Source of the DNA: Candidatus Poribacteria bacterium
GTDB lineage: Bacteria; Poribacteria; WGA-4E; PCPOR2b
Direction: 5' to 3'
NCBI GenBank assembly: GCA_965208675.1
Contig: OZ242351.1
Coordinates: 3,776,001 to 3,840,000, forward strand
DNA: 64,000 nt
The position numbers and the translations under genes were made by a program. Each line of letters starts with the position of its first letter. Positions within the stretch are counted from its first letter, which is position 1. The notes under the pieces are model-generated. The model searched no databases, was not told the origin of the DNA, and saw nothing but the letters and a program-made list of their open reading frames with translations. Shown piece after piece: positions 9,854 through 26,728 of this stretch.

Positions 9854-11947
9854 ATGGCGGACACAAAGATTCTAATGCTTGCCAATAGAGACGCTCTTGA
9901 CCTCGAAATTGAGAATCGATTAAAAAATCTTGGATACACCGTTTGCACGTCGGCTTCATCTGGAACACAAACCATTGAAGAGATATCGAAAATGCAGCCC
10001 GATTTAGTCATGGTCAAACTTGGACTCGAAGGTGCTATGGCTGCCGTCGAAGATGCCGAGCAAATGTACTACCAGTTCAATATCCCGGTAATATTTCTGA
10101 TTGACTCAATAGCCGAAAATGCATTGGAAAAAATAAAGCGGACAGGTGTATTTGGTCATGTCTTCCATCCGTTCGACGGTAATCAATTATACTTGAGCGT
10201 AGAACAGCAACTCCGCTGGCATCGCGATACCACCAAATATAAAATGAACGAGGCGCAATCAAATAAAACTATTGGTGAGTTGCGCCATCAAACCCAACTG
10301 ATGGAAACCGTTTTTGATAGTATGTATGACGGTATCGTCGTTCTCAGTTTAACAGGTGAAATATTGTTCATTAATCCAAGTATACGACAACTGTTCGGTA
10401 CGGTGCCCTTGGGCGAATTACGCAGCGAATGGTCTGAAAGGCACGGTGTGTTTTACCCCGATAAAGAAACCCGCCTTCCAATCGATCAGATTCTTTCCAC
10501 ACATCTCGCCCGAGGTGTAGCAATTAGAGATGAAGAGCTTTTCATACGCAACGAGCAACGGACGGAGGGAGTCCACATCAAGGCGAGTGCCAGCCCCTTA
10601 TTTGATGAGAATCACAATGTTGTCGCCTGTGTGTGCGTTATTCGCGACATCACTAAGGACAAATTAGCAACCATACAGTTGGAACAAACGATGCAGGAAC
10701 TGGAAAATCAGGTTCAACTGACGAATACCATTTTTAATAGTATGGGGGATGGCGTAATCGCTGCCGATACAAGCGGCGCATTCACAATTTTTAATCCCAG
10801 TGCAAAAAAGATTCTCGGCATCGGATTAATAGATACAACCCCTGATAAATGGAGCGAGAGCTACGGTTTCTTTTTCCCTGATAGAGTTACACCCTTCCCG
10901 GCAGACGAACTGCCGCTTGCGTGTGCCCTTAAGGGAAGAGCCTCAGACGAGGTAGAGATGTTTGTGCGCAATCCGGAAGTGCCGGACGGTGTTTTTATCA
11001 GCGTCAGTGGAAGGCCGCTGCAGGACGAAGACAGTACAAAAAAGGGAGGGGTTATAGTTTTCCGCGATGTAACGCACCGGGTGATTGCCGAAGAAGCGTT
11101 GACACAAGCATTCGCACAAGGGCGGTTGGAAATTGTCGAGACCATCCTCCACAATATCGGTAACGCAATCAATAGCGTAACCGTAGGAGTTAACGTCCTC
11201 CAAGAGAATTTGGTGGGAAATCAACTCGTACGCCGCTTCTCGTCACTTGCCGATATGGTTAAAGCGCATCAAGAGGATTGGGTTAATTATATTAAAGATG
11301 ACCCGAAAGGACAGCAGGTGCTCCCATTTATAATTGCACTGGCTGCAGATATCGCCGACCAGAACAATAAAGTGGTCGAGACACTTGAGCGCGTCAGTGA
11401 AAGAGTGACGCATATCGTTGATATCATCCGAACGCAAAGAGCGTCCAATCAGACAAGTATGACCTGGAAAAATATCGACTTGCGGCAAACAATCTTGAGT
11501 ACGGTAAAATTACATCAAGAAGCGATCGACAAAAGGGGCATACATATAGATGTCAACTGCGAAAGCGCGCCCCAAGAGATTCGAGTTCAGGAGAGTCAAT
11601 TTCATCAGATGTTAGTGAATCTAGTCAAAAATTCAATTGAAGCTATTGATGAACGTATTCAATCTGGCGGACTCAAGCAACCCCTGCGTATCGCGTTAAA
11701 GGCTTATATCAGCGACGATTTTCTCTGCCTGGATGTTACCGATAACGGCATCGGTATTACACAAAAGAACTTGAAGTTGATTTTCACCGCTGGCTACACA
11801 ACCAAGCAATCCGGCACCGGGCTAGGCCTCTTTTCGAGCGCAAATTTTGTGATTGGATCCGGCGGGCAAATTTACGCCTTGAGCGAGGGTATCGGCACGG
11901 GCACAACCATGCGAATCAAGCTCCGCTGCTCCTCCGTTATTCCGTAA
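9854..11947 (+). CDS. Sensor histidine kinase: degenerate receiver, 2 PAS domains, His-kinase/HATPase
   Basis: Receiver-like N-terminus lacking the acceptor Asp (DLVMVKL); PAS repeats; H-box ILHNIGN, NLVKNS, DNGIGI, GTGLGL. Confidence 0.88.
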   Translation: MADTKILMLANRDALDLEIENRLKNLGYTVCTSASSGTQTIEEISKMQPDLVMVKLGLEGAMAAVEDAEQMYYQFNIPVIFLIDSIAENALEKIKRTGVFGHVFHPFDGNQLYLSVEQQLRWHRDTTKYKMNEAQSNKTIGELRHQTQLMETVFDSMYDGIVVLSLTGEILFINPSIRQLFGTVPLGELRSEWSERHGVFYPDKETRLPIDQILSTHLARGVAIRDEELFIRNEQRTEGVHIKASASPLFDENHNVVACVCVIRDITKDKLATIQLEQTMQELENQVQLTNTIFNSMGDGVIAADTSGAFTIFNPSAKKILGIGLIDTTPDKWSESYGFFFPDRVTPFPADELPLACALKGRASDEVEMFVRNPEVPDGVFISVSGRPLQDEDSTKKGGVIVFRDVTHRVIAEEALTQAFAQGRLEIVETILHNIGNAINSVTVGVNVLQENLVGNQLVRRFSSLADMVKAHQEDWVNYIKDDPKGQQVLPFIIALAADIADQNNKVVETLERVSERVTHIVDIIRTQRASNQTSMTWKNIDLRQTILSTVKLHQEAIDKRGIHIDVNCESAPQEIRVQESQFHQMLVNLVKNSIEAIDERIQSGGLKQPLRIALKAYISDDFLCLDVTDNGIGITQKNLKLIFTAGYTTKQSGTGLGLFSSANFVIGSGGQIYALSEGIGTGTTMRIKLRCSSVIP

Positions 11948-12236
11948 TGAAACATCTCCCCCATTCGATAGGCGCGGTTTCCACTCGCACCGAATGCAAC
12001 CAATTATTTTCAGCAGTCAAAACCATGAAAGAATGGCTCACAGCAGGCCTCACCGACCGTACCTTACACAAATCTTAACCGTTTACGCATTACGCTTTAC
12101 TCGTTATTCTTTACCGTAGTTGCGATCAAGCGAGTGGATAGCGAGCGCGATAGAGATCCTCTTTCCTAACCTCGCCGATTCGAAGAATAAACGCAATTTT
12201 AAAATCAACCATAAATTAAACTACTAGGAAATATAA

Positions 12237-14126
12237 ATGGAATCAAAAGAGCATCGTAATTATCGTGTCTTAATCGTTGATGACGAAACCGCAATCCACA
12301 GAGACTTTAAAGATATGTTGACCCCAACCCGCACACAGACGTTAACAGATGAGTTGGTAGAAACCCTCCTAGACGAGGAGCCTGAGAATAATACCTCCTT
12401 TCTGCCCAACTTTGAACTTTTGCATGCGACAAGTGGAGAGGAGGGGTACGATATTATTCGCGCGGGAAAGGAATCAAACTGTCCGATTGCGGTCGCATAC
12501 ATTGATGTCAGAATGCCCCCGGGCATTGACGGGGTTGAAGCAATCCGCCGCATCAGGGAGATTGAAAAGGACATCGAACTGGTCATAATGACTGCTTACA
12601 CGGATAAACCGCTGCCTGAAATTGTCCGCGATATGGAGTTTCTTCACAAACTACTCTATATCCGAAAACCATTCGCACCGGAGGAGGTGCAGCAAATTAC
12701 GCTTGCCCTCGTCGAAAAGTGGAACATCGAACGTGAGTTAGCCAAAAAACAACAGCAAATCATAAGGAATCATCAGAGGCTTGAAACCATACTTGATTCT
12801 GCGGCTGATGCGATTGGAATGTTCGATGGCGACGGAAACCTGTTGTTCGCAAATCAACTCTATCAGCAACTGCTTGGATTTACAGGGGAACAGCTGAGAC
12901 AAATGCCCCCGGACGAGCTCAATACAGTTATTGAAGCGCGATTCCAAACGCCCGAACTATCGCAACTAGGACAGGCGCCGCCCGCTGAAAACCTTGAAAA
13001 CGTATTCGAAGAGATTGGAGAAGCCAGCCAGTCTGGGCAGAGGTTATTTTATCGCTCGATTACACCGGTACGGAACGATCAAGGCGATTCTGCTGGAGAC
13101 GTTGTCAGTTACCGCGATATGTCCAAAGACGTTGAGATTCAACAGATGAAATCTGAGGTGCTCCGTTTACGTGCTGAACTTGAAACCATTCTCTCCTTTG
13201 ATGAAATCATAGGCAAAAGCCGAAACATGCAGCAGATGTTCGAGTTGATGCAACGTGCAACTGAAAGTGATATTAGCGTGCTTATTTCAGGCGAAAGTGG
13301 AACTGGCAAAGAGTTGGCGGCGCGTGCAATCCACTTCAATAGCCCGCGAAAAGCGGGCCCATTTGTTTCAGTCAATTGCGCCGCCATTCCTGAATTGCTA
13401 ACTGAAAGCGAGCTATTTGGTCATGAACAAGGGGCTTTCACCGGTGCTACAACAAGGCGTATCGGCAAATTTGAACATGCAAATAGTGGTACAATCTTTT
13501 TTGATGAAATTGGAGATATGCATCTGGAGCTGCAAGCGAAATTGTTGCGTGTCCTCCAAGAACGGAAGATACAGCGTGTCGGCGGTGCAACCAATATCCC
13601 GGTTGATATCCGTGTGCTAACAGCCACAAACAAGAATCTAGAAGCTGCGATAAAATCGGGCGCTTTTCGGAAGGACCTGTTTTATCGGATCGCCGCTTTC
13701 CCCATTGTAATTCCCCCGCTTAGAGACCGGCGCGAAGATATTCCACTCTTGGCGAACCATTTTCTTAAAACATTCGCCGAAAAAATGGCAAAATCCGTAA
13801 AAGCGATTTCCGCCGATGCCTTGGGATTATTGATGCAATATGATTTTCCCGGCAACGTACGCGAGTTGCAAAACATCATTGAACGCGCTGTTCTGCTTGA
13901 GACCACTGAACTGCTGCAACCGAGCAACCTATCCCCACAGATTTCTGCTCCGGCTATCTTGTCATTCCTTAGCTCAACAGAAATCCTGCCGTTCGAGTTG
14001 ATTGAACGTCAGATTCTATCCCACGCACTCAAGATGAGTGACAATGATGTTAGGAGGGCTGCCGGAGCCTTGAATATCGGCAAATCAACACTGTATCGAA
14101 AATTAAAGTTCTATCAACTCAAATGA
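12237..14126 (+). CDS. sigma54-dependent enhancer-binding regulator (REC-PAS-AAA+-Fis HTH)
   Basis: IVDDE/YIDVRMP receiver, GESGTGKE, GAFTGA, FFDEIG, FPGNVRELQN, C-terminal HTH. Confidence 0.93.
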   Translation: MESKEHRNYRVLIVDDETAIHRDFKDMLTPTRTQTLTDELVETLLDEEPENNTSFLPNFELLHATSGEEGYDIIRAGKESNCPIAVAYIDVRMPPGIDGVEAIRRIREIEKDIELVIMTAYTDKPLPEIVRDMEFLHKLLYIRKPFAPEEVQQITLALVEKWNIERELAKKQQQIIRNHQRLETILDSAADAIGMFDGDGNLLFANQLYQQLLGFTGEQLRQMPPDELNTVIEARFQTPELSQLGQAPPAENLENVFEEIGEASQSGQRLFYRSITPVRNDQGDSAGDVVSYRDMSKDVEIQQMKSEVLRLRAELETILSFDEIIGKSRNMQQMFELMQRATESDISVLISGESGTGKELAARAIHFNSPRKAGPFVSVNCAAIPELLTESELFGHEQGAFTGATTRRIGKFEHANSGTIFFDEIGDMHLELQAKLLRVLQERKIQRVGGATNIPVDIRVLTATNKNLEAAIKSGAFRKDLFYRIAAFPIVIPPLRDRREDIPLLANHFLKTFAEKMAKSVKAISADALGLLMQYDFPGNVRELQNIIERAVLLETTELLQPSNLSPQISAPAILSFLSSTEILPFELIERQILSHALKMSDNDVRRAAGALNIGKSTLYRKLKFYQLK

Positions 14127-14339: not shown

Positions 14340-14453
14340 GTCCCAATATGGGACACAGTCCCATATTGAGAAAACGCCCGAATCCCGCGTCATTACAGGA
14401 TTTTCCGCCGATTTCCTCTGTTTCTGTCAATCCTATCTGTCCCATTATGGGAC
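14340..14453. promoter_or_regulatory. Three palindromic upstream activator sites GTCCCA-N3-TGGGAC
   Basis: GTCCCAATATGGGAC 14340-54, GTCCCATATTGAGAA 14358-72, GTCCCATTATGGGAC 14439-53; 120-235 bp upstream of a sigma54 promoter. Confidence 0.7.
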
Positions 14454-14573
14454 TTTTTCAACCTGCACCCTGTTACGCTACCGTCCGTCTGACTCCTTCC
14501 CATACCCATCAAAGCCAAGCTACCACTGGATTTCTATGCTTCTACAGAGTTGAATCCTTCCTTAGACCGACCG

Positions 14574-14590
14574 TTGGCACGGTTTTTGCC
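14574..14590 (+). promoter_or_regulatory. sigma54 (-24/-12) promoter
   Basis: TTGGCACGGTTTTTGCC with exact GG-N10-GC spacing, directly downstream of the activator gene. Confidence 0.85.
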
Positions 14591-15018
14591 GTAGTAAAGC
14601 GGAGGCAAATCGTCTTTCTCTGATCCGGTTGGTTCAACGGAATGACGAATCCAAACATTTTTCGGTTGGCGCGATCATGCGCGTGGATAACGAGTGCGAT
14701 AGAGATCCCATTCCAACCCCACCCGCGACCGGAAAAATAACGGTGCGGTTAGGAAACCGAACCTACCGCGGTGTTTAAATGATCGTTTGGTTTGCTATAG
14801 AACGAAACATGGGATAGCAGCGGCTTTGACAGTCCTGCTGCCTTGTATTTGCGGTGCCAGTTGTAATGAAAGCGTGCTCCCAAGTTGTAACCCATACACA
14901 TGATGATGGATTAGGCAATAGTGCAAATTCAAACTAATATCACGGCCGGGTGGGTATAACAGATAATAACTATCAAAACATAATCACTTAGATTAACTCG
15001 ATATGAGAAGGATTTGAA

Positions 15019-15129
15019 ATGAGTCCTTTAGCAATCGTAATCCTCGCCATGATTGTATTGCCCTTAGTAGCAATTTGCTTCATCGTGAAAAAGGCTTATA
15101 AATCGGATTCAAAGGGAAAAACCAGATGA
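15019..15129 (+). CDS. 36-aa single-TM small protein
   Basis: MSPLAIVILAMIVLPLVAICFIVKKAYKSDSKGKTR; SD AAGGA; ATGA overlap with next ORF. Confidence 0.55.
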   Translation: MSPLAIVILAMIVLPLVAICFIVKKAYKSDSKGKTR

Positions 15130-15302
15130 ACATCAAGGCAGACATTGAGAACATTAAGAAAATCATCGTTGGATTAATCATCAGCAATACACATAACTTC
15201 GGCACAGCGGAAGAAGATTTAGACGACCTTCAAACAGCGGCTGCTGAATTAATAGATGACCACAATACCTGTATGGTGACAGACAGTTTTTGGGTCGCTT
15301 AG
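15126..15302 (+). CDS. 58-aa hypothetical protein
   Basis: MNIKADIENIKKIIVGLII...; translationally coupled by ATGA overlap. Confidence 0.5.
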   Translation: MNIKADIENIKKIIVGLIISNTHNFGTAEEDLDDLQTAAAELIDDHNTCMVTDSFWVA

Positions 15303-15422
15303 AGTTTATCCGATTCGCTGAGCAACACAGCAGCCCTTACTGTTTGTCACCGCCAAATTGAATATGACGGGGCGCGGGGAAACTCCTATGGGACACCGAC
15401 CACCCCCGCTCTAGCCCCGTCA
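15274..15422 (+). repeat. Tandem hairpin pair H1 (15274-15352) + H2 (15365-15422)
   Basis: GGTGACAGACAGT...ACTGTTTGTCACC then TGACGGGGC-GCGGGG...CCCCGC-tcta-GCCCCGTCA; the same pair recurs at 17076-17230. Confidence 0.85.
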
Positions 15423-15450
15423 ACTCTTTTCGGCAAATGGAGGTGAAACA

Positions 15451-15540
15451 ATGTTCAATATTGGTTTTCTACTCCTTTATTTTTTCATTATCGGGTTACT
15501 TACTGGCGTTGTTACTTTCATGCTAGAGCATCTCCTCTAG
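15451..15540 (+). CDS. 29-aa hydrophobic peptide
   Basis: MFNIGFLLLYFFIIGLLTGVVTFMLEHLL; strong SD GGAGGTG. Confidence 0.6.
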   Translation: MFNIGFLLLYFFIIGLLTGVVTFMLEHLL

Positions 15541-15804
15541 ATTGATTTTAACGAACATCTAAACCAATACGCTCTTATGTCTGGCGCGAAAGGCGTTTTG
15601 TTACGAATATAGACCCAAAAAAAACTAAAAAATACCCAGTCTGAAAAAAGTCCCAACATATTGCCCGCAGTTCGGCATGAATACGCTTGAATTATTGAGT
15701 GGCGCACGCGGCGGGCGAAGGGGGACGTTGCACGTTTTGCGGACACGGACGCAATCATCGGGCGTGCCGCGGACGGTGAATCACAAACTGAAAGCAAGGC
15801 AAAT

Positions 15805-15877
15805 CCTTATGGCGGGAGTGGGGGGATCTAGCCAACTTGTTCCACAACTAACACTGTTCCTGCTCCCGTCGCCTTAT
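15805..15877 (+). repeat. Hairpin H3 flanked by CCTTAT on both sides
   Basis: CCTTAT-GGCGGGAGTGGGGG...TTCCTGCTCCCGTC-G-CCTTAT, multiple G.T pairs on the + strand. Confidence 0.8.
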
Positions 15878-15898
15878 TACGAACGAAGGAATTTGCCC

Positions 15899-16186
15899 AT
15901 GAGATGGATTTACATTGTCCCTTGTAACACCAACGATGACAAAATATGGTTTATCAATGCGGACAATATCAAATCGATTCGGTTAATTAAATTAGATTTA
16001 TACCTTGGAACTAGTCAAATACGATTACCTCTTGGAACGAAACCCGATGATGCCAGACACTTTTTATACACGCTCGTAAATTGCCTTTCTCATTGGCAGG
16101 ACGGGCATGTGCTTACGCTGGTTATGGAAAGCCTTAGTTGCGCGTTTGAACGAGCGGACAAAGCAATAGCCGGCGGCAAAGCTTGA
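15899..16186 (+). CDS. 95-aa hypothetical protein, probable paralog of 63060..63320
   Basis: ATG after AAGGA; WFINADNIKSIRL vs FYLNVDAIRSIRI. Confidence 0.6.
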   Translation: MRWIYIVPCNTNDDKIWFINADNIKSIRLIKLDLYLGTSQIRLPLGTKPDDARHFLYTLVNCLSHWQDGHVLTLVMESLSCAFERADKAIAGGKA

Positions 16187-16229
16187 TTCGGTGCTTAGAA
16201 AATTGTGAATGGCTAAGTAAGCTGAAAAC

Positions 16230-16343
16230 CCTTATGACGGGCGGCTGCGATGGTCTTAATTGGGGCTGACATACCCTTCCTTTCCCATCGCAGTAATTGC
16301 CCGTCACCTTATGGCGAGAGCCGGGCTAACCCCGGTAGTCGTC
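16230..16343 (+). repeat. Hairpin H4 (16235-16306) + short hairpin H5 (16313-16343) joined by CCTTAT
   Basis: TGACGGGCGGCTGCGATGG...CCATCGCAGTAATTGCCCGTCA-CCTTAT-GGCGA..CCGGG..CCCGG..TCGTC. Confidence 0.8.
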
Positions 16344-16480
16344 GAGTAACTGAATAGGCGTAAAGGACGCCTATTTGGGCAAGAAAAATCCTGAGTTTAG
16401 TGGTGAGTTGGGCGTCGCCGGGCGGCGTAGCTCGGGTACGTTTTCAATCATTTGATGGAGTAAAACGAAAGGAGCTAACG

Positions 16481-17066
16481 ATGAAAAAAAGGGGTTAAAG
16501 TGTTTGGAAGATAAATCTTAATGCTGTCACTAGTGATTGCCGTTTCGCTTGCTTTTCTGAGTTGCGATGCGGTTTAGGACTTGGCGGACTTGTTGTCATC
16601 GCCGCCGTCAGAACAGGCGCACGCAGCGATCGGTTCGACGAGCGTAAGCGACGTAACAGGTACGGCGGTTTTCGAACAAATCGGAGATACAATCGCGCTA
16701 ACCATTGAGATTCAGAACGCGGAACCACGGCTCCGTGCCGTTCATTTCCACGAATACGGTGATTGCAGCGCACCCGACGGGACATCGGCAGGCGGGCATT
16801 GGAATCCGACCAACACCGCGCACGGCAAATGGGGTGAGGGTGAATTCCATCTCGGAGACATTGGCAATATAATGGTCGGCGAGGACGGCACCGGCAAAAT
16901 CGAACTGGCGACAGACCTTTGGGAAATCGGAACCGGTTCCATCCGCGACGTTGTCGGAAAAGGCATAATCGTTCATGCCGGCGCGGACGACTTTACGTCC
17001 CAGCCCTCAGGGGCTGCCGGCGCGCGAATCGGCTGCGGGTCGATTGTGTTGGCTGAATCGCAGTAA
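16481..17066 (+). pseudogene. sodC: Cu/Zn superoxide dismutase lipoprotein with disrupted signal peptide
   Basis: HFHE.GDC, SAGGHWNP, HLGDIGN, IIVHAGADD, RIGCG. The 5' part has a frameshift in the A/G run, in-frame TAA 16512 and TAG 16575 just after lipobox LAFLSC. Confidence 0.8.
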
Positions 17067-17075
17067 TCCCTCGTA

Positions 17076-17230
17076 TGGTGACAAACAGTTTTTTTTTGCT
17101 CGTAGTGTGTACGATTTGATGAGCAATACAATCTCCTTGGTTCTGTTTGTCACCGCCTAAACTTAATATGACGGGGCGCGGGTAAATTGTCCCATGGAAA
17201 CGAAACTCCTAAGTCAATTCGTGTCCCGTC
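17076..17230 (+). repeat. Tandem hairpin pair H6 (17076-17155) + H7 (17170-17230)
   Basis: TGGTGACAAACAG...CTGTTTGTCACCG; GACGGGGCGCGGGT...ATTCGTGTCCCGTC (14 bp, 4 G.T). Confidence 0.85.
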
Positions 17231-17267
17231 TGCCCAAATTTTTAATTTCAAAACAAGGGATCTCAAA

Positions 17268-18470
17268 ATGAATATCGGAAGAATCATATTATTTTCGTTT
17301 GTATTGGCAATTGTCCTCTTAATAATGGGGCTATCTGCTTGTGACCAGATTGGGCAACTACTCCTCCCCGCGCCGCCTGATAAGGAAGATGTAAGTGTAG
17401 AGATTCCCATCGGCGTTGTGCTACCAATTACGGGACGGCTCACCTCTACATTTGGGGAACCCACGGTCAACGGCTATGAACTCGCTCTCGAAGAGATTAA
17501 CAACTCAAAACTCGGAGGGAAAAGCATCAAGTTTATCCTTGAGGATGACCGAAGCAACATTGAGGGCGCGGTTGAAGCATTCAATAAACTGATTCAACAG
17601 GAAGGCGTATCTGTTATCCTCGGCCCCGCCACCTCAGGTCAGGCAGAGGTCGTGTTCCCGATAGCGCAAGAAAATCAGGTCGTCGCGTTTAGCCCTACAT
17701 CCGCCGGACGCGGTCTCAGCGCCATTAGCGATTTTGCCTTTCGTGTCTCTCTCACCACGGATGTGCTGATTCCAAGCGGTATTGAGGCGACTTACGCTAA
17801 ACTCGGCTATAAGAAAGCCGCTACGATGTACGATGAAAGCGATGTCTTCTCCACGGATAGCGATGAAGCAGTGAGGGAATCGCTTGCCGCGAAGGGCGTC
17901 GAGGTATTGGTAACAGAGACGTTTCAAGGCGGCGACACCGATTTTAGCGAACAATTATCTCGGATAAGGGAGGCACACCCCGATATTATCTTTGTCTCCT
18001 CTTTATCGCCGGAAAAACCGGGAATTCTGATGCAAAGCCGCCAACTCGGTATACCCGACTCGGTGCCGTTTGTTATGCGCACCTTGACCATAGCTGACGT
18101 ACGTGCGGCGGGTGAGGCTGCCGAGGGGGCGATTACTTTCGTCGGGTGGGTAAGCACTGCCGACACACCGGCAAATGGCGCCTTCGTCCAGAACTATCGC
18201 GCCAAATACGGGGTGGATCCGAGTAATTCCGCAGCGCGGTCATATACCACGCTCCATGTTCTGGCGGAAGCCATTGCCAACGCCAAATCCACGGACTCAA
18301 TCTCGATTCGAAACGCATTGGCAAATATCGCGGACTTCGACACGGTCTTCGGTAAGTTCTCTTTTGACGCCGTCGGGGATGCCGTTTACGACCCAAAGAT
18401 ATTGATTGTCATTGACGGTCAATTGGAATTCTTTGAACAACCGTTTTTAGCAGCTCGGCAAAAGAGGTAG
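17268..18470 (+). CDS. ABC substrate-binding lipoprotein, LivJ/Peripla_BP_6 family
   Basis: Lipobox LSAC; IPIGVVLPITG, GDTDFSEQL, FGKFSFD. Confidence 0.88.
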   Translation: MNIGRIILFSFVLAIVLLIMGLSACDQIGQLLLPAPPDKEDVSVEIPIGVVLPITGRLTSTFGEPTVNGYELALEEINNSKLGGKSIKFILEDDRSNIEGAVEAFNKLIQQEGVSVILGPATSGQAEVVFPIAQENQVVAFSPTSAGRGLSAISDFAFRVSLTTDVLIPSGIEATYAKLGYKKAATMYDESDVFSTDSDEAVRESLAAKGVEVLVTETFQGGDTDFSEQLSRIREAHPDIIFVSSLSPEKPGILMQSRQLGIPDSVPFVMRTLTIADVRAAGEAAEGAITFVGWVSTADTPANGAFVQNYRAKYGVDPSNSAARSYTTLHVLAEAIANAKSTDSISIRNALANIADFDTVFGKFSFDAVGDAVYDPKILIVIDGQLEFFEQPFLAARQKR

Positions 18471-18527
18471 TGCGTCTATCGAACCCGGTCAGCGTGTTCC
18501 GGGTGTGGTTTTTCTATCAACCAATAA

Positions 18528-18601
18528 CTCATGACAGGGCGCGGGTAAAGCACTTTACATTGCCCCAACTCTCTTGTGTCAATCCGTTCCCTGTCGCTCA
18601 T
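18528..18601 (+). repeat. Hairpin H8 flanked by CTCAT on both sides
   Basis: CTCAT-GACAGGGCGCGGGT...ATCCGTTCCCTGTC-G-CTCAT. Confidence 0.8.
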
Positions 18602-18627
18602 TGTTTAAAGGAAGGAGGCATTAAAAG

Positions 18628-18819
18628 GTGTCCATGAACGGAGAAAAGGATATCACACAGTCCACCGTGATGATACGGCTGACAGAACGGCAGGAAATAA
18701 TCTTGAAAGAAGCCAAGAACGCGACCGGAGTTTCGTTTGGCTCGCTTATCCGAAAGTGTATAGACATGAATATCGAATACCTTCACCGTTTGACTATTGG
18801 GGCGAAGCAGAAGGATTGA
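18628..18819 (+). CDS. Ribbon-helix-helix-like small DNA-binding protein
   Basis: TVMIRLTERQEIILKEAKNATGVSFGSLIRKCID matches the CopG/RHH pattern; SD AGGAGG. Confidence 0.65.
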   Translation: MSMNGEKDITQSTVMIRLTERQEIILKEAKNATGVSFGSLIRKCIDMNIEYLHRLTIGAKQKD

Positions 18820-18841
18820 AGCTTGCACATAGCCTGATTTT

Positions 18842-18921
18842 CTTATGACAGGGCACGGAAAAAAGATCCAATCCTGCGGATTTGCGCCCTATCCGAGCGC
18901 TCCCGCCCCTGTCGCCTTAAT
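18842..18921 (+). repeat. Hairpin H9
   Basis: CTTAT-GACAGGG...CCCTGTC-G-CCTTAAT. Confidence 0.75.
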
Positions 18922-18977
18922 TGCGCGGTGCAATTACACCGACTGACGCCGTTGCAAGCGTGATGAAAGGAGGAACA

Positions 18978-19181
18978 ATGTGCGATTCTCCTGTAAATTT
19001 CGACGACCAGACGCAAAGATTGATCGAAGAAGATAAGTTGCTAGATACTATCGCGGACGCAGCCAAACGTCTCTGCGGACGCCGTCCAACCCACCAAGAG
19101 GTTGAGGATTTCCTAAAACTTATTGAAGGCGTAAAGCCCATAAACACAAAACAAAACAAAGGAGAGTTATCAAATGATTAG
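18978..19181 (+). CDS. 67-aa hypothetical protein
   Basis: ATG after AAGGAGG; overlaps the start of the next gene. Confidence 0.55.
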   Translation: MCDSPVNFDDQTQRLIEEDKLLDTIADAAKRLCGRRPTHQEVEDFLKLIEGVKPINTKQNKGELSND

Positions 19182-20388
19182 AACATGCATCACCCAATTC
19201 GTTTTTGCAACTGCGGTTATCGGCCTCGTTGCCGGGCTTTGCGGTTGCGATATAGTAGCTGAACTATTGACCCAAACCGACGACGGTTCTGATATTGAAG
19301 CCCCTGCTCGTATTGACATCGGCTTGATTGCGCCGCTCACGGGCGAGTACGCCGCGCCGTATGGTCTATCGATGGAGCGCGGTTTTAATCTTGCGCGCGA
19401 CGAAATCAATGGGCTGCCGAATAACCTACTTACGATTAATATCCTACCAGAGGATGATATGAGCACCCGAGACGGTATGGTATCCGCGTTTGAACGACTG
19501 ATTCAGGCGGGCGTTCCCGCTATTGTCGGAATCGCCATCTCGGAGCACGCGCAGCACGCTTTCCCGATAGCGCAAGAGAATCGGGTTGTGGTTTTCAGCT
19601 CCGTGTCAGCCGCCGCCGGTCTGAGCAGCATCGGGGATTACATCTTTCGCGCTGCCCTAGCTGTAGATAAGATGAATCCGGCGGGTGTCAACATCACACA
19701 TGAGGCGATTGGTTATGAAAACGCGGCAATGATATTTGACGACGCCGATCTCTACTCCACGAGCAGCTACGAACACTTGGCGGCGGCGCTTTTGAACCGC
19801 GGCGTGGATGTGTTGTTGACCGAGACGTACCAGTCCGGCGACACCGACTTCACAGCGCAATTGACCGCGATAATGGAAGCTAACCCGGACGCGCTCTTTG
19901 TTTCAGGTCTGGCTCCGGAAATCGTGAGCGTGGTGGTACAGGCACGGGAGATTGGCATTGAGGCGGATTATATCGTTCCGGAATTAGGCATAAACGATAT
20001 TCAACAAGCGGGCGCCGCGGCGGACGGCGTTATCACTTTCACCGGTTGGGATAGCTCAGTGGACAATCCGATAAATCATGCGTTTGTTGCCAGCTATCAA
20101 GCGGCATACGGCATCGCGCCCGACCCGTGGGCGGCTCAGTCATACGCAGCGCTTTACATCCTTTACAGCGCAATTTTAGAGGGGTCAATTTCAACGGAAT
20201 CTACAACGATTGCGGTTCCTGATTCTGCCGCGATTCGCGACGCTTTGGCTGCAGTGCAAGACTTCGGCACCAACCTAGGGCTCTTCTCATTTGACGCCGA
20301 GGGCGAGGCGCTTTACGAGCCGGTTGTGCTGACAATCAAGGACGGCAGTCTAATACCGTTCCGCGGCCCAGGAATCGCGTCGCCGTAA
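19174..20388 (+). CDS. ABC substrate-binding lipoprotein, LivJ family (paralog of 17268)
   Basis: Lipobox LCGC; IGLIAPLTG, FPIAQEN, GDTDFTAQL. Confidence 0.88.
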   Translation: MIRTCITQFVFATAVIGLVAGLCGCDIVAELLTQTDDGSDIEAPARIDIGLIAPLTGEYAAPYGLSMERGFNLARDEINGLPNNLLTINILPEDDMSTRDGMVSAFERLIQAGVPAIVGIAISEHAQHAFPIAQENRVVVFSSVSAAAGLSSIGDYIFRAALAVDKMNPAGVNITHEAIGYENAAMIFDDADLYSTSSYEHLAAALLNRGVDVLLTETYQSGDTDFTAQLTAIMEANPDALFVSGLAPEIVSVVVQAREIGIEADYIVPELGINDIQQAGAAADGVITFTGWDSSVDNPINHAFVASYQAAYGIAPDPWAAQSYAALYILYSAILEGSISTESTTIAVPDSAAIRDALAAVQDFGTNLGLFSFDAEGEALYEPVVLTIKDGSLIPFRGPGIASP

Positions 20389-20409
20389 TACGCCTTTTGG
20401 CAGTTTTTG

Positions 20410-20434
20410 GTGGGAGAGGCTTCCTAGCCTCGAT
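20410..20434 (+). repeat. REP-like palindrome GTGGGAGAGGCTTCCTAGCCTCGAT (6 copies)
   Basis: Copies at 20410, 23593, 26512, 36831, 44169, 48906, each followed by (T)TATCAAT or similar. Confidence 0.85.
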
Positions 20435-20706
20435 TATCAATCAGTCGATTTCTCCTTGTAAAAAATGAACCAAAATGACCATAACAAAGTGCTTTGGCTT
20501 ACGCTCCATCGTTCATATTTTCTAACGCAGTCAAACCATGTAACCCACACGGCGCATTGTCTATACCGCTCAACCGAACCTACAAATACTCATTACGATT
20601 TACGTTTTACTCACTTTGTGCGCACCGCAAAAACCATATCAAAAATCTGCCTGCCGAATCTGAACGAATTTAAGGCATATATTAAAGGAGTAATTAAGTA
20701 GACCAA

Positions 20707-21678
20707 ATGACCCGAGACGAAGCATTTCGCATTTTGGGGCTGGAATACAATGCGACACTAGACGATGCCAAGAAAGCCTATCGTGACCGCGTGAAAGTCA
20801 TGCACCCGGACAAGGATCCGTCGTCCGGTGCAAAACTACGCTTTATACTTGTCCAAAACGCATACGAAGTGATTACGAACCAACTTGTGAAAGACAAGCC
20901 TGCAAAGCAGGTTAGTACACGACCGGAAAGAGAACATCCGGCAAAGACACGAACGCACCACACGGATAGAGAAACCCATGCTGTTCGCTACTTTGAGCAC
21001 GGTGTACAAATGTATGAACTCGAGCAATATGCCGATGCAATTGCGGAGTTCGACGCTGCGATTCTATTTAATCCAAACTTTGCGGACGCCTGCTACGCCT
21101 GCGGCATCGCGAAATATGCTTCTAGACAATACGCCGCATCAATTCCAGACTTTGACGTCGCAATACGGCTTTATCCTAATTTTTTGGACGACTGCCATTA
21201 TTGGCGCGGTAGGGCAAAGTATAAGCTAAAACAATATTCCGCATCGCTGGCGGACTTCGACGCTGCAATAGGGCTTGAAGTTAACGTTTGTGCATACTAT
21301 TACTGGCGAAGTACGGCGAAGTTTAAGTTAGGACAATATGCCGCTAGTGTTCACGACTACGACGAGGTGATTCGCTTGGAACCGGATTATGTTGACGCCT
21401 ACTACTGGCGTGGTAGGGCGAAGTATGAGATAGGACATTATGCGGCTAGCGTTCACGACTACAACAAAGCGATACGAATGAAACCGGATTATGCCGACGC
21501 GTATTGTCATCGAGGTAGGGCGAAGTACGAGTTGGAACAATACGCCGAAGCTGTTCAGGACTTTGATGAGGCAATACGTCTGAGACCGGGTCTTAAGTAC
21601 GCTAGATACGGACGATTCAGAGCGAGGAATGAGTTGAAAAATGGGAACACCTCCTACACTGAGCCAGTTGATTGGTAG
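20707..21678 (+). CDS. J-domain (DnaJ-type) + TPR repeat protein
   Basis: AFRILGL..AKKAYR..HPDKD; about six 34-aa TPRs (AYYWRGRAKY.LGQYA.S..DYD.AI). Confidence 0.88.
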   Translation: MTRDEAFRILGLEYNATLDDAKKAYRDRVKVMHPDKDPSSGAKLRFILVQNAYEVITNQLVKDKPAKQVSTRPEREHPAKTRTHHTDRETHAVRYFEHGVQMYELEQYADAIAEFDAAILFNPNFADACYACGIAKYASRQYAASIPDFDVAIRLYPNFLDDCHYWRGRAKYKLKQYSASLADFDAAIGLEVNVCAYYYWRSTAKFKLGQYAASVHDYDEVIRLEPDYVDAYYWRGRAKYEIGHYAASVHDYNKAIRMKPDYADAYCHRGRAKYELEQYAEAVQDFDEAIRLRPGLKYARYGRFRARNELKNGNTSYTEPVDW

Positions 21679-21776
21679 AATCTCAGCGCACGCGCCAACG
21701 TGCCGCCGCTGTCCGCGTTGCGCTAGCAGAACTTTTGAAAATGACATAGCCTAACCAAGAACACAGGGAGAGAGTA

Positions 21777-22052
21777 ATGTCAAAATCAGATGGCGTTCCG
21801 ATTGGACAAACGCAGGAAGTTTTTCGCGCAATTGAATCGGGCAAAATACTAGAGAACGAGGAACTGTTCGGTCGTTTGGTGTGCTGGTGTTTCTATTGAT
21901 ATCAAGGCGTGCCGTTCGGCGTTCAAGAGGCGTGTCAGGAGGTCAAAAAGTGGACACGTGAAATAACTGAAAGCGTACAAAGTTATCCACAATTCTTCCA
22001 CAATGCGACTATTGCACTCCCCGACGCGCTTAAAAACAATCCTAAGGTCTAA
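21777..22052 (+). pseudogene. Small hypothetical gene with in-frame TGA at codon 41
   Basis: SD GGGAG, ATG 21777, TGA 21897-99; frame stays open 50 more codons to a TAA that abuts hairpin H10. Confidence 0.45.
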
Positions 22053-22053
22053 A

Positions 22054-22119
22054 TGACGGGCAGCTGGCGTTTTTTGGGGTATACAGCACCCCATCCTTTC
22101 CGCCAGCAAATGCCCGTCA
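22054..22119 (+). repeat. Hairpin H10
   Basis: TGACGGGCA-GCTGGCG...CGCCAGC-aaa-TGCCCGTCA-CCATAT. Confidence 0.85.
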
Positions 22120-22206
22120 CCATATTGCAGTTGTATTGAATTGTATTGGTTAAGGCGGTGAAATAAATGCCGATGTTGAAGCTATATCGAATAAGGAGGA
22201 TATAAG

Positions 22207-22329
22207 ATGAAAGTTTAGGACATGAAAGTTGACGAGTTTGATTATCGCATTAAGAAGATTGTTAAAGACGAGTCTAGGCTGTCTATTGATTCAGCGTTAG
22301 AGAGTAAACTGCTGAATGGGGTACCTTGA
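22207..22329 (+). pseudogene. Short ORF with TAG at codon 4
   Basis: Strong SD AAGGAGG then ATG AAA GTT TAG GAC ATG AAA GTT GAC GAG... Confidence 0.35.
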
Positions 22330-22448
22330 TAAATTTCGTCGAAAGCGCTGTGGATTTATCAATTCAAAAGCATGTTTCTGGTGATTAACAATCTATTCGC
22401 TTAATTTAATCGGTATGTAATCCTGAAAACAAAAAAAAAGGAGAAAAA

Positions 22449-23015
22449 ATGTTTCAACAAGTAATCGCCCGTTCTTTTTTGTGGTTAATCCCCCTTTTCG
22501 CGGTTCTCATTGTCGGAATCATCGCTTGTGGCGGTGACGAAGATGATGATACTGATGGACATGGTCATGAAAATGGTCATGAAAACGGTGATGTTAATGC
22601 TAATGATTGGGTTGGCACGTGGAAAATCGAAACCGTTGATGGTGAGGACTACGAGCAAGTCTTTGTAGAAAACTTAGAAGAAGAATTTGGAGAGGGCGTA
22701 AAAGTTTCCATTGTCGCCAACAGATACACGTTTAATAACGATGGCACACTAGAATCGGAATTTAAATTCAAGACGACAGGGAAAATAGGAGATGAAGACG
22801 TTTCTGGGACGCTTTCCCTTAAAGGAACGGGCACTTACGCCCTATCTGGCTCCAACTATACAATCACAGCCACACAGCGGGAAGAAGGAACTGGTTGGTT
22901 TGAAGGAGAGCAAGAAACCTGGACAGAGGATGAGTCCGGCACATGGTCAAGAGAGGGAAATTCCCTCACAATGAACAGCGATCAAGATGCTGTAGTTGTC
23001 TTGAAAAAGCAATAA
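22449..23015 (+). CDS. Lipoprotein, lipocalin-like beta-barrel (paralog of 44332)
   Basis: IIAC lipobox, WVGTWKIETVDG, GTW..EGN.LT. Confidence 0.75.
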   Translation: MFQQVIARSFLWLIPLFAVLIVGIIACGGDEDDDTDGHGHENGHENGDVNANDWVGTWKIETVDGEDYEQVFVENLEEEFGEGVKVSIVANRYTFNNDGTLESEFKFKTTGKIGDEDVSGTLSLKGTGTYALSGSNYTITATQREEGTGWFEGEQETWTEDESGTWSREGNSLTMNSDQDAVVVLKKQ

Positions 23016-23216
23016 GTAGGATCGGATGACATTAGACATCTTTCCAAAATCATTCCGCCGCCCGATAGCCCCAGCGGGGCGGCAGGTGTAAAACGACTAC
23101 CCTCACATTGGGCTAATACGCTGTAGGGGCAACCCTTGTGGTTGCCCTTAACGCTTCGGTTTTGTCAACCACATTGAGTTAAATAGGAAAGATGTCTATT
23201 GTAACTGCGCCGCCAG

Positions 23217-23495
23217 TAGACCCCGAATCCCCGTACTCGTTGCGGCGGATATTGGCATGGTAGATTCATTAACACGCGAGCGTTTTGGTCCGTATGGAGC
23301 GCCGATGCGGCGTGGATTTAATCTAGCGCGTGATGAGCCTAATCTTCCGATGGCGATAAACCTGATTCCGGCGGATGATATGCGCACGGCGCAAGAAATG
23401 ACAGAAGCATTTGAAAATCAGATTGAGATGGGTGTTCCCGCGATTCTAGGTATGGCGATATCGTCTTTTGTTCGGCAGGCTCTTCCGATAGCTCA
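23217..23495 (+). pseudogene. Fragment of a third LivJ-family binding protein
   Basis: PYGAPMRRGFNLARDE...GVPAILGMAIS...PIAQ matches the N-terminus of 19174; truncated just before a repeat element. Confidence 0.7.
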
Positions 23496-23745
23496 ACTTT
23501 TGTCGTTTGGGTTAAACGATCAACTGAGCGAATAGCGAAGGCGATAGTCTTACAGTCCTTACACCTAAATATCATCCATTTTCTATTAGTTTATGGGAGA
23601 GGCTTCCTAGCCTCGATTATCAATCAGTCGATCCATTCTTGTGTAGAATTGAACCGAAATGACTATATTTATTCAATCTGAGGCAATGCAGTTTGTCAAT
23701 TCGCCGCCGGCAGCAATTGGCTCAAGTTAATTCGGAGACTCTCAA

Positions 23746-26016: not shown

Positions 26017-26309
26017 CGGGATTTGCAGAGGATAGCGTAGTCAGACCAATCATTTTAACACAAGTTGCTAGACGATAAACCAAGCACCAGAGACTGGCAC
26101 ATTTGTCGGGAATTGGAATTCCCTCCTACAATAAGCGGGCGGTAGGAGCGATCTCCGAATCGCGACTGGCTGGACTACAGCCGTCTAGGTATTGAAGGTT
26201 GGAATCAACTGAGCGGATAGCGAAGGATCAACCGACCGAATAGGGAGGGCGATAGTCTTCAAGTCTTCGAGTCTTCACCTCCAGAACCGCTGAACCGACA
26301 AGAGGCAAA

Positions 26310-26349
26310 AAATTCTCCCCCTTTACAAGGGGGAGCTAGAGGGGGTACA
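26310..26349 (+). repeat. Palindromic repeat CCCCCTTTACAAGGGGGAGCTAGAGGGGG
   Basis: Copies near 26315, 39557 and 56688, plus an in-gene variant at 48113. Confidence 0.8.
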
Positions 26350-26419
26350 AAGATCGCCGGTAATCCAACTGAAGTTCCTCTAAGGGAATGCAGGCTATTT
26401 CTTCAGAGAATCAGTTTTT

Positions 26420-26687: not shown

Positions 26688-26728
26688 AAAAACTGATAAC
26701 CTTACGCGAAGAAAGAAAAGGCGGAATC

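Follow-up and report, generated by a model that had tools for sequence, protein, structure and literature searches.

To understand what a set of intergenic hairpins might do for the genes that they precede, we analyzed a 64,000-nt window from Candidatus Poribacteria bacterium (GCA_965208675.1, contig OZ242351.1, 3,776,001 to 3,840,000, forward strand; all coordinates below are those of the window). The window contains 12 related hairpin-forming repeats of 32–78 bases at two places, just 5' of small and mostly lineage-specific genes. A sequence-only reading had reported ten of them within 15274..22119, either as parts of a polycistronic precursor processed into small RNAs or as a non-integron signal for gene-cassette recombination. 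We found these ten within 1–2 nt of the reported positions and two more (H11 and H12) at 63343-63490, beyond the extent proposed for the array. The structure and the folding strand that it described held up, whereas neither of the two mechanisms was demonstrated. Our own tentative preference, to which we give somewhat less than even chances, is that the hairpins are intercistronic or 5'-UTR RNA hairpins transcribed from a lineage-specific repeat family.

Twelve hairpins form one family with subfamilies

The hairpins share the base (C)CTTATG-[G/A]C[G/A]GG...CC[C/T]GTC-[A/G]CC(TTAT), which forms a conserved stem of 7–9 bp. Beyond the base usually follow a copy-specific inner stem, varying from subfamily to subfamily, and a variable loop of 5 to ~45 nt. 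Folding confirmed the 3–4 nt bulge described earlier in the 3' arm of three of the 12 copies (H2, H4, and H10). The flanking linkers were also found as described, with exact direct repeats on both sides of three copies, CCTTA(T) at H3 and H4 and CTCA(T) at H8; the flanks of H9 match at four of five positions. Pairwise identities reach 78% for H1/H6, 74% for H4/H10, and 68% for H7/H8, above the shuffled maximum of 62%. Despite their overall identity, H4 and H10 carry different inner stems, each internally complementary. Four tandem pairs (H1-H2, H4-H5, H6-H7, and H12-H11) lie 6–15 nt apart without a gene between them. The suggested recurrence of H1+H2 as H6+H7 is confined to a segment that starts some 12 nt before H1 and ends with the 5' arm of H2/H7 (...GCGCGGGKAAA); past it, H2 and H7 are different.

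Eleven hairpins were folded as DNA on the sense strand against 200 shuffles each, giving z-scores from -1.1 to -5.75. None of the shuffles folded better for four of the 11 (H2, H4, H6, and H10), and at most three did so for six of the 11; H3, H5, H7, H9, and H11 were not significant individually, as 10–32 of the 200 shuffles folded equally well. A covariance model built on five copies (H2, H3, H4, H9, and H10), of the kind that the sequence-only reading had recommended, was used to scan the entire window without filters and matched the held-out H7 (E=0.0012) and H8 (E=0.021). On the minus strand, 63412-63477 is the next match (E=0.29); all others in the window have E-values of at least 0.79. 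H1, H5, H6, and H11 were not recovered by the model, and their membership is defined by the shared flank, the base motif, and their own folds. In the outer conserved stem of seven copies, 97.6% of the cells pair, with one double change from G-C to A-U in addition to G.U variants.

Searching Rfam, as had also been advised, revealed no known family, either at the gathering threshold in the window or at E<=1 in 14400-22600. In line with the earlier claim, the hairpins are not CRISPR-like, and the consensus pattern has no match beyond chance in 185,579 species genomes. GC-rich hairpins placed after stop codons could be ordinary intrinsic terminators or chance palindromes, an explanation to which we give next to no credence. 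In agreement with the earlier claim, a T-rich tail follows only one of the 12 copies (H2, five T in the first 8 nt), and the shared flank and base consensus would be unexpected among independent terminators. The held-out model matches together with the clustering exclude chance.

The hairpins are concentrated in one gene cluster

The array lies downstream of a gene for a sigma-54 activator with activator domains (12237-14126). For the sigma-54 promoter postulated earlier, the window has a promoter-like candidate site on the plus strand, TGGCACGGTTTTTGCC (14575-14590), with one mismatch to TGGCAC-N5-TTGCW. It lies about 430 nt 5' of the first small ORF, and the window holds five such one-mismatch sites vs. 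2.24 expected. All genes and hairpins of the array are on the plus strand. Two overlapping small ORFs (15019-15302) encode a membrane-like peptide of 36 residues and a 58-residue protein with no homologue except itself among 5.8 billion proteins. H1 (15275-15351; subfamily GGTGACARACAG; z -2.63, 1/200 shuffles) overlaps the stop codon of the latter ORF. H2 (15365-15422; two-tier, 4-nt bulge; z -4.10) precedes by 28 nt a 29-residue hydrophobic ORF of no family (15451-15540) with the ribosome-binding site GGAGGTG. H3 (15810-15871; TGGCGGGAG type; z -1.10) lies 27 nt before a 95-residue ORF (15899-16186) of a strictly lineage-specific family, whose relatives fall into six clusters with 58–89% identity and one 50% cluster in 1.84 billion; the predicted model of the protein (pLDDT 81) has no PDB match. 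H4 (16235-16306; two-tier, 3-nt bulge; z -5.25) is followed after 6 nt by the short H5 (16313-16344; GGCGAG type, 5-nt loop; z -1.96, 11/200 shuffles).

The gene named sodC in the sequence-only reading (16521-17066) indeed codes for a Cu/Zn superoxide dismutase that carries a lipoprotein signal, and it is interrupted by an in-frame TAG at 16575-16577. H6 (17077-17154; z -4.52), the homologue of H1, begins 10 nt past its stop codon. H7 (17170-17229; z -1.79), with a 5' arm common to H2 and H8, lies 38 nt before the first of two orphan genes for LivJ-type substrate-binding lipoproteins (17268-18470), which ends shortly before a terminator-like hairpin with a T-run (18481-18515). H8 (18532-18596; z -2.83) precedes by 31 nt a 63-residue ORF (18628-18819), for which the proposed RHH assignment found weak support, as the match to DUF6290 (E=0.0015) is below the family cut-off. 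H9 (18846-18914; z -1.21) lies 63 nt before a 67-residue ORF overlapping the second LivJ-type gene (19174-20388; both ORFs, 18978-20388). The two binding proteins are 43% identical, lack transporter genes, and are preceded by hairpins of the same subfamily, H7 and H9. The 5' neighbors of the DnaJ-TPR gene (20707-21678) are other repeats (families B and C, see below) without a hairpin; no homologue that covers half or more of the query exceeds 52% identity to its product, one further match having 64% over 18% of it. A 91-codon frame (21777-22052) contains an in-frame TGA (21897-21899), and H10 (22054-22119; two-tier, 3-nt bulge; z -5.75) begins 1 nt past its end. Most hairpin groups are spaced by 0.3–1.4 kb, and one stretch of 3.2 kb with four genes is hairpin-free.

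Hairpins occupy seven of the nine gaps in the array and about one of 22 elsewhere in the window (hand count; Fisher p=1e-4). The small, unrelated, and partly decayed genes would make up an accessory, fast-evolving cluster. Of the array genes, three were searched: one has relatives that are 81–89% identical, and for the other two no relative exceeds 52% when half or more of the query is covered. Gene content thus seems to vary among relatives.

The second locus, 41 kb away on the minus strand, holds two copies behind an unrelated housekeeping gene. Downstream of the end of this leuA-type gene (LeuA_dimer domain) lies H12 (63422-63490; GGCGAGATGCT.../...AGCTATCTCGCC; RNA fold -31.1 kcal/mol), which overlaps the model match with E=0.29. 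In tandem with it, H11 (63343-63412; CTTATGGCGGGAC type; z -1.59) lies 22 nt (counted by hand) before an 86-residue ORF (63060-63320). H3 and H11 belong to the same subfamily, and the 95- and 86-residue ORFs that they precede show weak paralogy; the latter is a possible distant paralogue of the former (E=0.004 over 13 residues; hhalign probability 44.6%, E=2.3e-4, 35 columns), absent from its 50% cluster (1.84 billion).

Polycistronic small RNAs would be another way to account for the array. A sigma-54-driven precursor would be cut at CCUUAU linkers flanking every hairpin on either side to free small RNAs of ~60–80 nt, with the variable loops as guides or regulators. The upstream consensus, the two-sided linkers of H3, H4, and H8, the folding of the sense strand (see below), and the conserved stem with variable loops would suit this proposal. 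It is weakened by the terminator-like hairpin within the array and the distance of the sigma-54 site. Moreover, exact two-sided linkers occur at only three of the 12 copies, the second locus follows a housekeeping gene on the other strand, and Rfam gave no match. No nuclease or RNA-binding gene was found near the array, and the loops have no detectable relation to any other sequence of the window. We consider such small RNAs highly improbable.

Strand of folding and a tentative case for RNA hairpins

Arm-against-arm alignments of the 12 copies contain 166 Watson-Crick positions, 14 transversions, and, among the remaining mismatches, 15 G.T/T.G pairs on the gene-sense strand vs. three A.C pairs, which could wobble only on the antisense strand (binomial p=0.0075). 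Stem mismatches are thus tolerated on the sense strand. All 12 copies, in eight intergenic gaps at the two loci, are oriented in the sense of the neighboring genes, including the minus-strand copies H11 and H12. Both results uphold the earlier claim of folding by the transcribed strand. When RNA parameters were used, it was the antisense strand that was more stable in four of the 11 hairpins (H2, H4, H9, and H10). The wobble bias could in part come from a bias toward C-to-T mutation of the non-template strand, and it is equally expected if single-stranded DNA of the sense strand folds. The case against a replication-linked orientation bias consists of the one second locus.

All copies are intergenic or at ORF ends, and the last hairpin of a gap lies 28, 27, 38, 31, 63, or 22 nt from the next start, with 176 nt in one case. 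As we tentatively envisage it, the imperfect palindromes would be transcribed together with the surrounding genes and fold in the messenger RNA, several of them in two tiers, 22–63 nt 5' of the next start codon. The conserved single-stranded CCUUAU beside the stem would mark processing sites, and the hairpins would shield message ends against exonucleases. They would thereby punctuate and stabilize messages, a weaker form of the RNA option raised before. The copies may have spread by being duplicated along with the gene that follows them or through some mobility enzyme. The inner stems of H4 and H10, in which structure is kept while sequence drifts, count in favor of such RNA hairpins, as do the paralogous genes that are preceded by hairpins of one subfamily. 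For small palindromic repeats and MITEs, Di Nocera et al. (2013; PMC3733652) report a location mainly between ORFs that are co-directional or convergent, frequent transcription, and effects of the RNA hairpins on adjacent genes. Several features fit the RNA hairpins less well. The terminator-like hairpin inside the array speaks against a single long transcript; the conserved base and the direct-repeat flanks, unneeded for a plain stabilizer, suggest recognition by a specific enzyme; and a cassette-type explanation would account equally well or better for the clustering and the gene turnover.

Possible selfish repeats or recombination sites

The genome is rich in further intergenic repeats. In the window, family B comprises a 19-mer in ten copies and linked units in 13, family C has three copies, and one palindrome carries a GTAG tag. 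The hairpins might likewise be small, selfish, mobile repeats (REP/REPIN or MITE type) that accumulated where the sequence is dispensable and decaying, without a dedicated function and with merely incidental RNA effects. Their arms resemble terminal inverted repeats (TG start, CA or CG end), flanked by direct repeats of 4–5 nt at H3, H4, and H8 and by the partial match at H9. Three pairs with conserved interiors (H1/H6, H4/H10, and H7/H8) exceed the shuffled maximum, two array genes contain in-frame stops, and REP/BIME elements typically form tandem clusters. Some REP families cluster at a few loci, and "CGTC"-tagged REPs exist (PMC3733652). We nevertheless regard selfish repeats as unlikely. 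The orientation relative to genes is identical in all 12 copies, and loops and inner stems are mostly unrelated, in contrast to copies of a single master element. Nor are the arms the 8–9 bp stem-loops that define CGTC/GTAG REPs, and they have no unpaired GTAG tag. Because the flanks of H3 and H4 are both CCTTA, they seem to belong to the consensus instead of being random duplications of a target. The window contains neither a transposase nor a RAYT gene, most of its intergenic gaps hold family B instead of hairpins, and the consensus pattern stays at chance level in the species genomes.

Recombination of single-stranded DNA is slightly more probable, though still an unlikely explanation. Each hairpin would bound one mobile one-gene module of a non-integron or very divergent integron-like cassette system, and the folded sense strand would be the substrate of a recombinase whose gene lies elsewhere in the genome, with the crossover at the base triplet (TGA|C for AA|C of attC) or at the CCTTAT flank. 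The small, unrelated, co-oriented, orphan, and partly pseudogenized genes, the tie of the hairpins to the downstream gene, the spacing of the groups, the direct repeats at three of 12 hairpins, and the turnover suggested by protein searches of three array genes are consistent with such modules. On the other hand, this turnover is deduced from protein searches alone, four tandem pairs enclose no gene, four genes in 3.2 kb lack hairpins, and the second locus has two copies only. Among the ORFs scanned in the window, none contained a domain of a tyrosine or serine recombinase, an HUH enzyme, or a transposase. As reported earlier, attC cores (RYYYAAC/GTTRRRY) occur in none of the 12 copies in either orientation. 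The recombined strand of integrons is normally antisense to the cassette genes, whereas the sense strand is concerned here.

The hairpins share the shape of attC without its sequence: a base stem, extra unpaired bases on one arm (3/12 copies), a copy-specific inner stem, and a variable loop, the extra bases being on the 3' arm of the strand marked as the folding one by the wobble bias. One source places the extrahelical bases of the attC bottom strand on the corresponding arm and describes the AAC triplet as "not important per se" but as providing micro-homology (PMC5027507), which makes a parallel system with another triplet conceivable. For the transcribed RNA hairpins that we tentatively prefer, the role may instead be likened to that of several better-known elements. 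REP/BIME, ERIC, and Correia elements serve as processing sites or protect message ends, and the RNase III hairpins between the early genes of phage T7 have the same kind of role.

Twelve hairpins with a common stem base

All ten hairpins described in the sequence-only reading (H1–H10) were found where it had placed them, between the genes of a plus-strand array at 15.0–22.2 kb. When the whole window was scanned with a loose motif and with a covariance model, a further tandem pair emerged on the minus strand, H11 (63343–63412) and H12 (63422–63490), located 3′ of the end of a minus-strand leuA-type gene (LeuA_dimer) and 22 nt, counted by hand, from a minus-strand 86-aa ORF downstream. The twelve copies are 32–78 nt long, irregularly spaced (6 nt to 3.2 kb), and share the consensus (C)CTTATG-[G/A]C[G/A]GG ... 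CC[C/T]GTC-[A/G]CC(TTAT), with an ATG at the stem base or directly before it in 11 of 12. The CGTC or TGTC at the 3′ base is paired inside the stem, and single arms do not self-fold. H2, H4, and H10 clearly fold in two tiers with a bulge on one side, the remaining copies having symmetric or irregular internal loops. Exact direct repeats of 4–5 nt flank three of the twelve copies, the same CCTTA at H3 and H4 and CTCA at H8; the flanks of H9 match at four of five positions.

The covariance model, seeded with five copies (H2, H3, H4, H9, and H10) and run without filters over all 64 kb, recovered the held-out H7 (E = 0.0012) and H8 (E = 0.021). The next match overlaps H12 (E = 0.29), and all remaining matches have E-values of at least 0.79. 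H1, H5, H6, and H11 were missed by the model and are members by motif and fold. Pairwise identities are mostly below 70%; those of H1/H6 (78%), H4/H10 (74%), and H7/H8 (68%) compare with a shuffled maximum of 62%. Only these three pairs have common interiors, with identities of 70%, 58%, and 51%, respectively. H2, H7, and H8 have a common 5′ arm, and H3, H5, H11, and H12 a common GGCG[G/A]G start. The unit formed by H1, its linker, and the 5′ arm of H2 is repeated by H6, its linker, and the 5′ arm of H7, a similarity beginning about 12 nt 5′ of H1 and ending in the H2/H7 loop.

When the sense strands of 11 copies were folded as DNA, none of 200 shuffles beat H2, H4, H6, or H10, and at most three did so for six of the 11; H3, H5, H7, H9, and H11 were individually non-significant. 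Family membership is a stronger argument against chance than individual folding. That the hairpins are plain terminators or chance structures is hardly credible to us. An intrinsic terminator is a GC-rich hairpin with a T-run directly behind it. The absence of terminator U-tails claimed from the sequence is borne out, a T-rich tail (5 T or more among the first 8 nt) following only one of the 12 copies, and the terminator scan lists none of them.

An Rfam search, proposed in the sequence-only reading, returned no match at the gathering threshold in the window and none at E ≤ 1 in 14400–22600. CRISPR arrays consist of direct, nearly identical repeats 24–48 nt long, separated by regular, unique spacers. 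The rejection of CRISPR repeats in that reading also stands, since the present copies are too dissimilar in length and sequence and too irregularly spaced; no CRISPR-like family occurs among the 20 largest repeat families of the window. We ruled out a DNA uptake sequence because single arms are not dispersed over the window, and mini-ORFs from the stem-base ATG because they range from 5 to more than 30 codons without a ribosome-binding site by inspection. A pattern scan of species genomes (TTATGRCRGG-N38-66-CCYGTCRCCTTA) yielded seven single matches in unrelated taxa, roughly the chance level (about 30 estimated), and none with a family-like fold. No description of the hairpin element was found in a literature search, which was not designed to prove absence.

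Array genes, their relatives, and other repeats

Upstream neighbours of the array are a histidine kinase gene (9854–11947) and a sigma-54 activator gene (12237–14126), and a putative promoter-like sigma-54 consensus, TGGCACGGTTTTTGCC, graded good, lies at 14575–14590. One-mismatch sigma-54 sites number 5 in the window against 2.24 expected, and a search of the window found no repetition of the consensus downstream of individual hairpins. Promoter and terminator scans gave site numbers not above those in shuffles, no tRNA or tmRNA was detected, and the array had no blastn match in plasmids or phages.

The plus-strand array comprises four small ORFs (36, 58, 29, and 95 aa), a Cu/Zn superoxide dismutase gene (sodC, 16521–17066), two orphan LivJ-type substrate-binding lipoproteins of 43% mutual identity, a weakly RHH-like 63-aa ORF (DUF6290, E = 0.0015, under the cut-off), a 67-aa ORF, a DnaJ-TPR protein gene, and a 91-codon frame (21777–22052). 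An in-frame TAG (16575–16577) splits the lipoprotein signal of sodC from its enzyme domain, and an in-frame TGA (21897–21899) interrupts the 91-codon frame; these stops may reflect pseudogenes, sequencing errors, or read-through. The GC3 of the array genes (0.42–0.62) falls inside the range of the remainder of the window (0.33–0.64, or 0.40–0.64 excluding the 86-aa ORF) and is therefore uninformative on foreign origin. Between the first binding-protein gene and H8, we read from the sequence a terminator-like hairpin at 18481–18515 (ACCCGG...CCGGGT then GGTTTTTCT), which the terminator scan omitted because its loop exceeds 8 nt. Judging from this hairpin, the organism apparently terminates transcription at ordinary T-tailed sites, and the array is probably transcribed in more than one piece.

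Three array genes (95-aa, 58-aa, and DnaJ-TPR) were searched in a set of 5.8 billion proteins. For the 95-aa protein, this gave six homologue clusters of 58–89% identity, one located on a 421-kb contig; among 1.84 billion representatives, its whole family forms just one 50% cluster. The 58-aa ORF matched only itself among the 5.8 billion proteins, and the DnaJ-TPR protein had no homologue above 52% identity covering at least half of the query in the same set. That only one of the three genes has close relatives suggests a gene content that varies among close relatives. The structure model of the 95-aa protein (pLDDT 81) matched nothing in the PDB with E < 0.8, its Atlas scores were all below 0.9, and neither these nor the family search gave a clue to a nuclease or recombinase role.

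This sign of gene turnover, together with array genes that are orphan and partly decayed, would agree with the hairpins being cassette recombination sites, a possibility already raised from the sequence, to which we give a fairly low probability.

Two further intergenic repeat families lie in the window. The 19-mer of the first, a dispersed one (family B), TTGTAGGTTGGGTTGAGCG, occurs in 10 copies at up to 3 mismatches (0.02 expected) and is often joined to 23–35-nt units of the form GATCAACYGAGCGAATAGCGARGGCGATAGTCTT, present in 13 copies. Its sites are 7111–7182, 12116–12150, 14665–14699, 20567–20585, 23510–23544, 26205–26462, 26671–26689, 27035–27167, 27310–27328, 34837–34908, 39419–39510, 56409–56563, 59618–59712, 62676–62916, 63020–63038, and 63728–63746. 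The inverted pairs 26418/26689, 27035/27328, and 62676/63038, 250–360 nt apart, resemble MITE ends. A third LivJ-type binding-protein gene is represented by an N-terminal fragment (23257–23535; Peripla_BP_6, E = 0.0056) that ends abruptly at a unit of this family. The second (family C) is a 38-mer at 20412–20449, 23595–23632, and 36833–36870, two copies being exact and one having one mismatch, within a conserved block of about 85 nt; these copies are intergenic, ahead of genes for the DnaJ-TPR protein, a WD40 protein, and an outer-membrane beta-barrel protein. At 23123–23147 there is one perfect 8-bp palindrome with a GTAG tag and the classical REP shape, GTAG-GGGCAACC-CTTGT-GGTTGCCC. Since the window holds other intergenic repeat families, the prior for a repeat-element origin of the hairpins is raised. 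We think it rather unlikely that they are selfish repeats of the REP or MITE type; the differences are set out below.

Elsewhere in the window, a HicA toxin gene (Pfam E = 7e-14) overlaps an upstream 99-aa ORF, which could be its HicB-type partner despite the absence of a Pfam match, and this pair (8933–9398) stands alone on the minus strand within an otherwise plus-strand region. At 57105–59385, a 604-aa protein with weak similarity to the phage terminase large subunit (NCBIfam E = 1.8e-8, under the cut-off) and a weak DEAD-helicase Pfam match follows a 162-aa ORF that overlaps it; the vicinity showed no further recognisable phage genes. Genes without a family assignment at 53912–54745 and 60313–62219 are made of 66-nt (22-residue) coding repeats, the former directly following a second pair of histidine kinase and sigma-54 activator genes (49604–53633). 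A run of very large plus-strand genes with WD40, Ig-like, dockerin, cohesin, LRR, and FlgD-Ig/T9SS-sorting domains occupies 23746–48745; they have in common a conserved C-terminal block and long repeats of about 320 nt, found both within and between the genes.

Folding strand, position, and possible function

To compare the arms, every 5′ arm was aligned to the reverse complement of its own 3′ arm, giving 166 Watson-Crick positions and 14 transversions. On the gene-sense strand, 15 mismatches form G.T or T.G, against three A.C mismatches, which wobble on the antisense strand only (binomial p = 0.0075). This excess could come partly from a C-to-T bias of the non-template strand, and a sense-strand single-stranded DNA intermediate would be expected to leave an identical wobble signature. 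In the outer stem of the seven model-aligned copies, 97.6% of cells are paired, with G.U variants and one double change from G-C to A-U (H8 and H9). Folded with RNA parameters, 7 of 11 copies are more stable as the sense strand and 4 of 11 as the antisense strand, so that energy alone cannot decide the folding strand. All twelve copies, including the minus-strand H11 and H12, have the same sense as the genes that flank them.

The last hairpin of a gap lies 28, 27, 38, 31, 63, or 22 nt from the next start codon, the exception being the 176 nt ahead of the sodC signal peptide; the distance from the preceding stop is more variable (-28, 269, 48, 10, 61, 26, and 1 nt). By hand count, hairpins occupy seven of nine gaps in the array and about one of 22 elsewhere (Fisher p = 1e-4), with different gap thresholds in the two sets (at least 50 nt and at least 100 nt, respectively). 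Paralogous genes have hairpins of the same subfamily in front of them: H7 and H9 in the case of the two binding-protein genes, and H3 and H11 in that of the 95-aa and 86-aa ORFs, whose paralogy is weak (E = 0.004 over 13 residues; hhalign probability 44.6%, E = 2.3e-4). The 86-aa ORF was not recovered in the 95-aa family search among the 1.84 billion representatives. Such linkage to the downstream gene would also be expected of cassette recombination sites, as would the bulge that H2, H4, and H10 carry on the 3′ arm of the folding strand.

Transcribed intercistronic or 5′-UTR RNA hairpins are the reading that fits best and that we tentatively favour: the wobble signature is that of the sense strand, orientation is strict, the copies sit in front of ribosome-binding sites, and their single-stranded flanks are conserved. 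Within mRNA, the hairpins might mark processing sites and might shield message ends, for which REP/BIME and MITE-type elements offer a precedent (PMC3733652). The small-RNA precursor of the sequence-only reading likewise places the hairpins in RNA, and we judge it very unlikely. If the hairpins are RNA elements, the array would be a clean natural case, from an uncultured-type lineage, of intercistronic hairpins that are linked to genes and locked in orientation, useful for studying message-end definition outside model bacteria.

Comparison with known systems

In an integron attC site, it is the bottom strand that folds and recombines; this strand is antisense to the cassette genes and has its extrahelical bases near L''. 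A complete integron has an intI tyrosine recombinase and an attI site adjoining the array, and a CALIN is a cluster of attC sites without an integrase. The attC site is a single-strand hairpin made up of R and L boxes, spacers, and a variable loop (PMC8352920), and its cores read 5′-RYYYAAC-3′ (R'') and 5′-GTTRRRY-3′ (R') with a conserved AAC/GTT triplet (PMC5027507). The present hairpins are attC-like in architecture, which favours cassette sites: they are imperfect, of similar size, with a conserved base stem, an inner stem differing among copies, and a highly variable loop, and three of the 12 copies have additional unpaired bases on one arm. As in attC arrays, there is one site per small, promoterless-looking, co-oriented gene, and gene functions are unrelated; as in CALINs, an integrase is absent nearby. 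No integrase, recombinase, transposase, or HUH domain was found in the ORFs scanned across the 64 kb, which rules out a complete integron there and counts against cassette sites.

Cassette sites are further opposed by the cores: as the sequence-only reading had noted, RYYYAAC/GTTRRRY occurs in none of the 12 copies on either strand within 35 nt of either end, the base being TGAC[G/A]GG/CC[C/T]GTCA. With neither an Rfam model nor attC cores to match, such arrays may go unannotated. Unlike in attC, the stretch matching the unpaired spacer is paired, the repeats outside the stem are direct and not inverted, and the wobble-tolerant strand is the coding strand, opposite to that of integrons, with bulges on its 3′ arm. 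Gene-less tandem hairpins and a stretch of four genes without a site also differ from attC arrays and CALINs and speak against cassettes. According to Nivina et al., the AAC triplet counts only as micro-homology (PMC5027507), which favours cassette sites by leaving room for an independent system. We see a rather low probability for an undescribed, integron-independent cassette system, in which attC-shaped, GAC/GTC-based coding-strand hairpins would form the 5′ edges of mobile one-gene modules, with the enzyme that moves them encoded elsewhere in the 4.9-Mb genome (source contig, 4,892,038 bases). If the hairpins are recombination sites, the integron solution of a structure-specific single-strand site per gene would have arisen more than once, and the array would point to a new recombinase.

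REP and REPIN elements have high copy numbers across a genome and an associated RAYT gene. Tagged REPs, according to Di Nocera et al. (2013), are 20–40-nt units with their own 8–9-bp stem, a 4–5-nt loop, and an unpaired GTAG or CGTC tag (PMC3733652). Like REP/BIME/REPIN elements as presented there, including the tagged palindromes, our hairpins are intergenic, fall into subfamilies, are often tandem or clustered between co-directional genes, are plausibly transcribed, and in many copies carry CGTC at the 3′ base. Unlike such tagged units, they have arms that are not stem-loops of that size and fold, and their CGTC or TGTC is paired, which excludes this identity. Orientation relative to genes is strict here, there are only 12 copies at two loci in 64 kb, and a RAYT gene was not seen in the window.

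MITEs have terminal inverted repeats of 15–30 bp and target-site duplications. Bacterial MITEs acting as RNA hairpins include ERIC, Correia/NEMIS, and RUP (PMC3733652). Our family resembles them in its position beside coding regions and may do so in having terminal inverted repeats, short target duplications, and co-transcription with effects through RNA folding. They differ in length (70–300 nt versus 32–78 nt here), and the present copies have mostly unrelated interiors, a single orientation, and no known parent IS. Inverted arms occur in 12 of 12 copies and exact direct flanks in three, two of them with the same CCTTA. With interiors common to three pairs only and no IS in the window, a MITE with a common interior and a parent IS was rejected.

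A case similar to the favoured RNA reading is that of phage T7, among whose early genes RNase III processing hairpins lie between the cistrons of a multi-gene transcript and leave protective hairpins on message ends. Unlike in T7, the conserved sequence here is at the base and flanks and not in the internal loop, and the locus is chromosomal, not phage; cleavage or a role of RNase III would here be an analogy only. Like the T7 hairpins, the present ones are intercistronic, and the clearest copies (H2, H4, and H10) are two-tier with an asymmetric internal loop.
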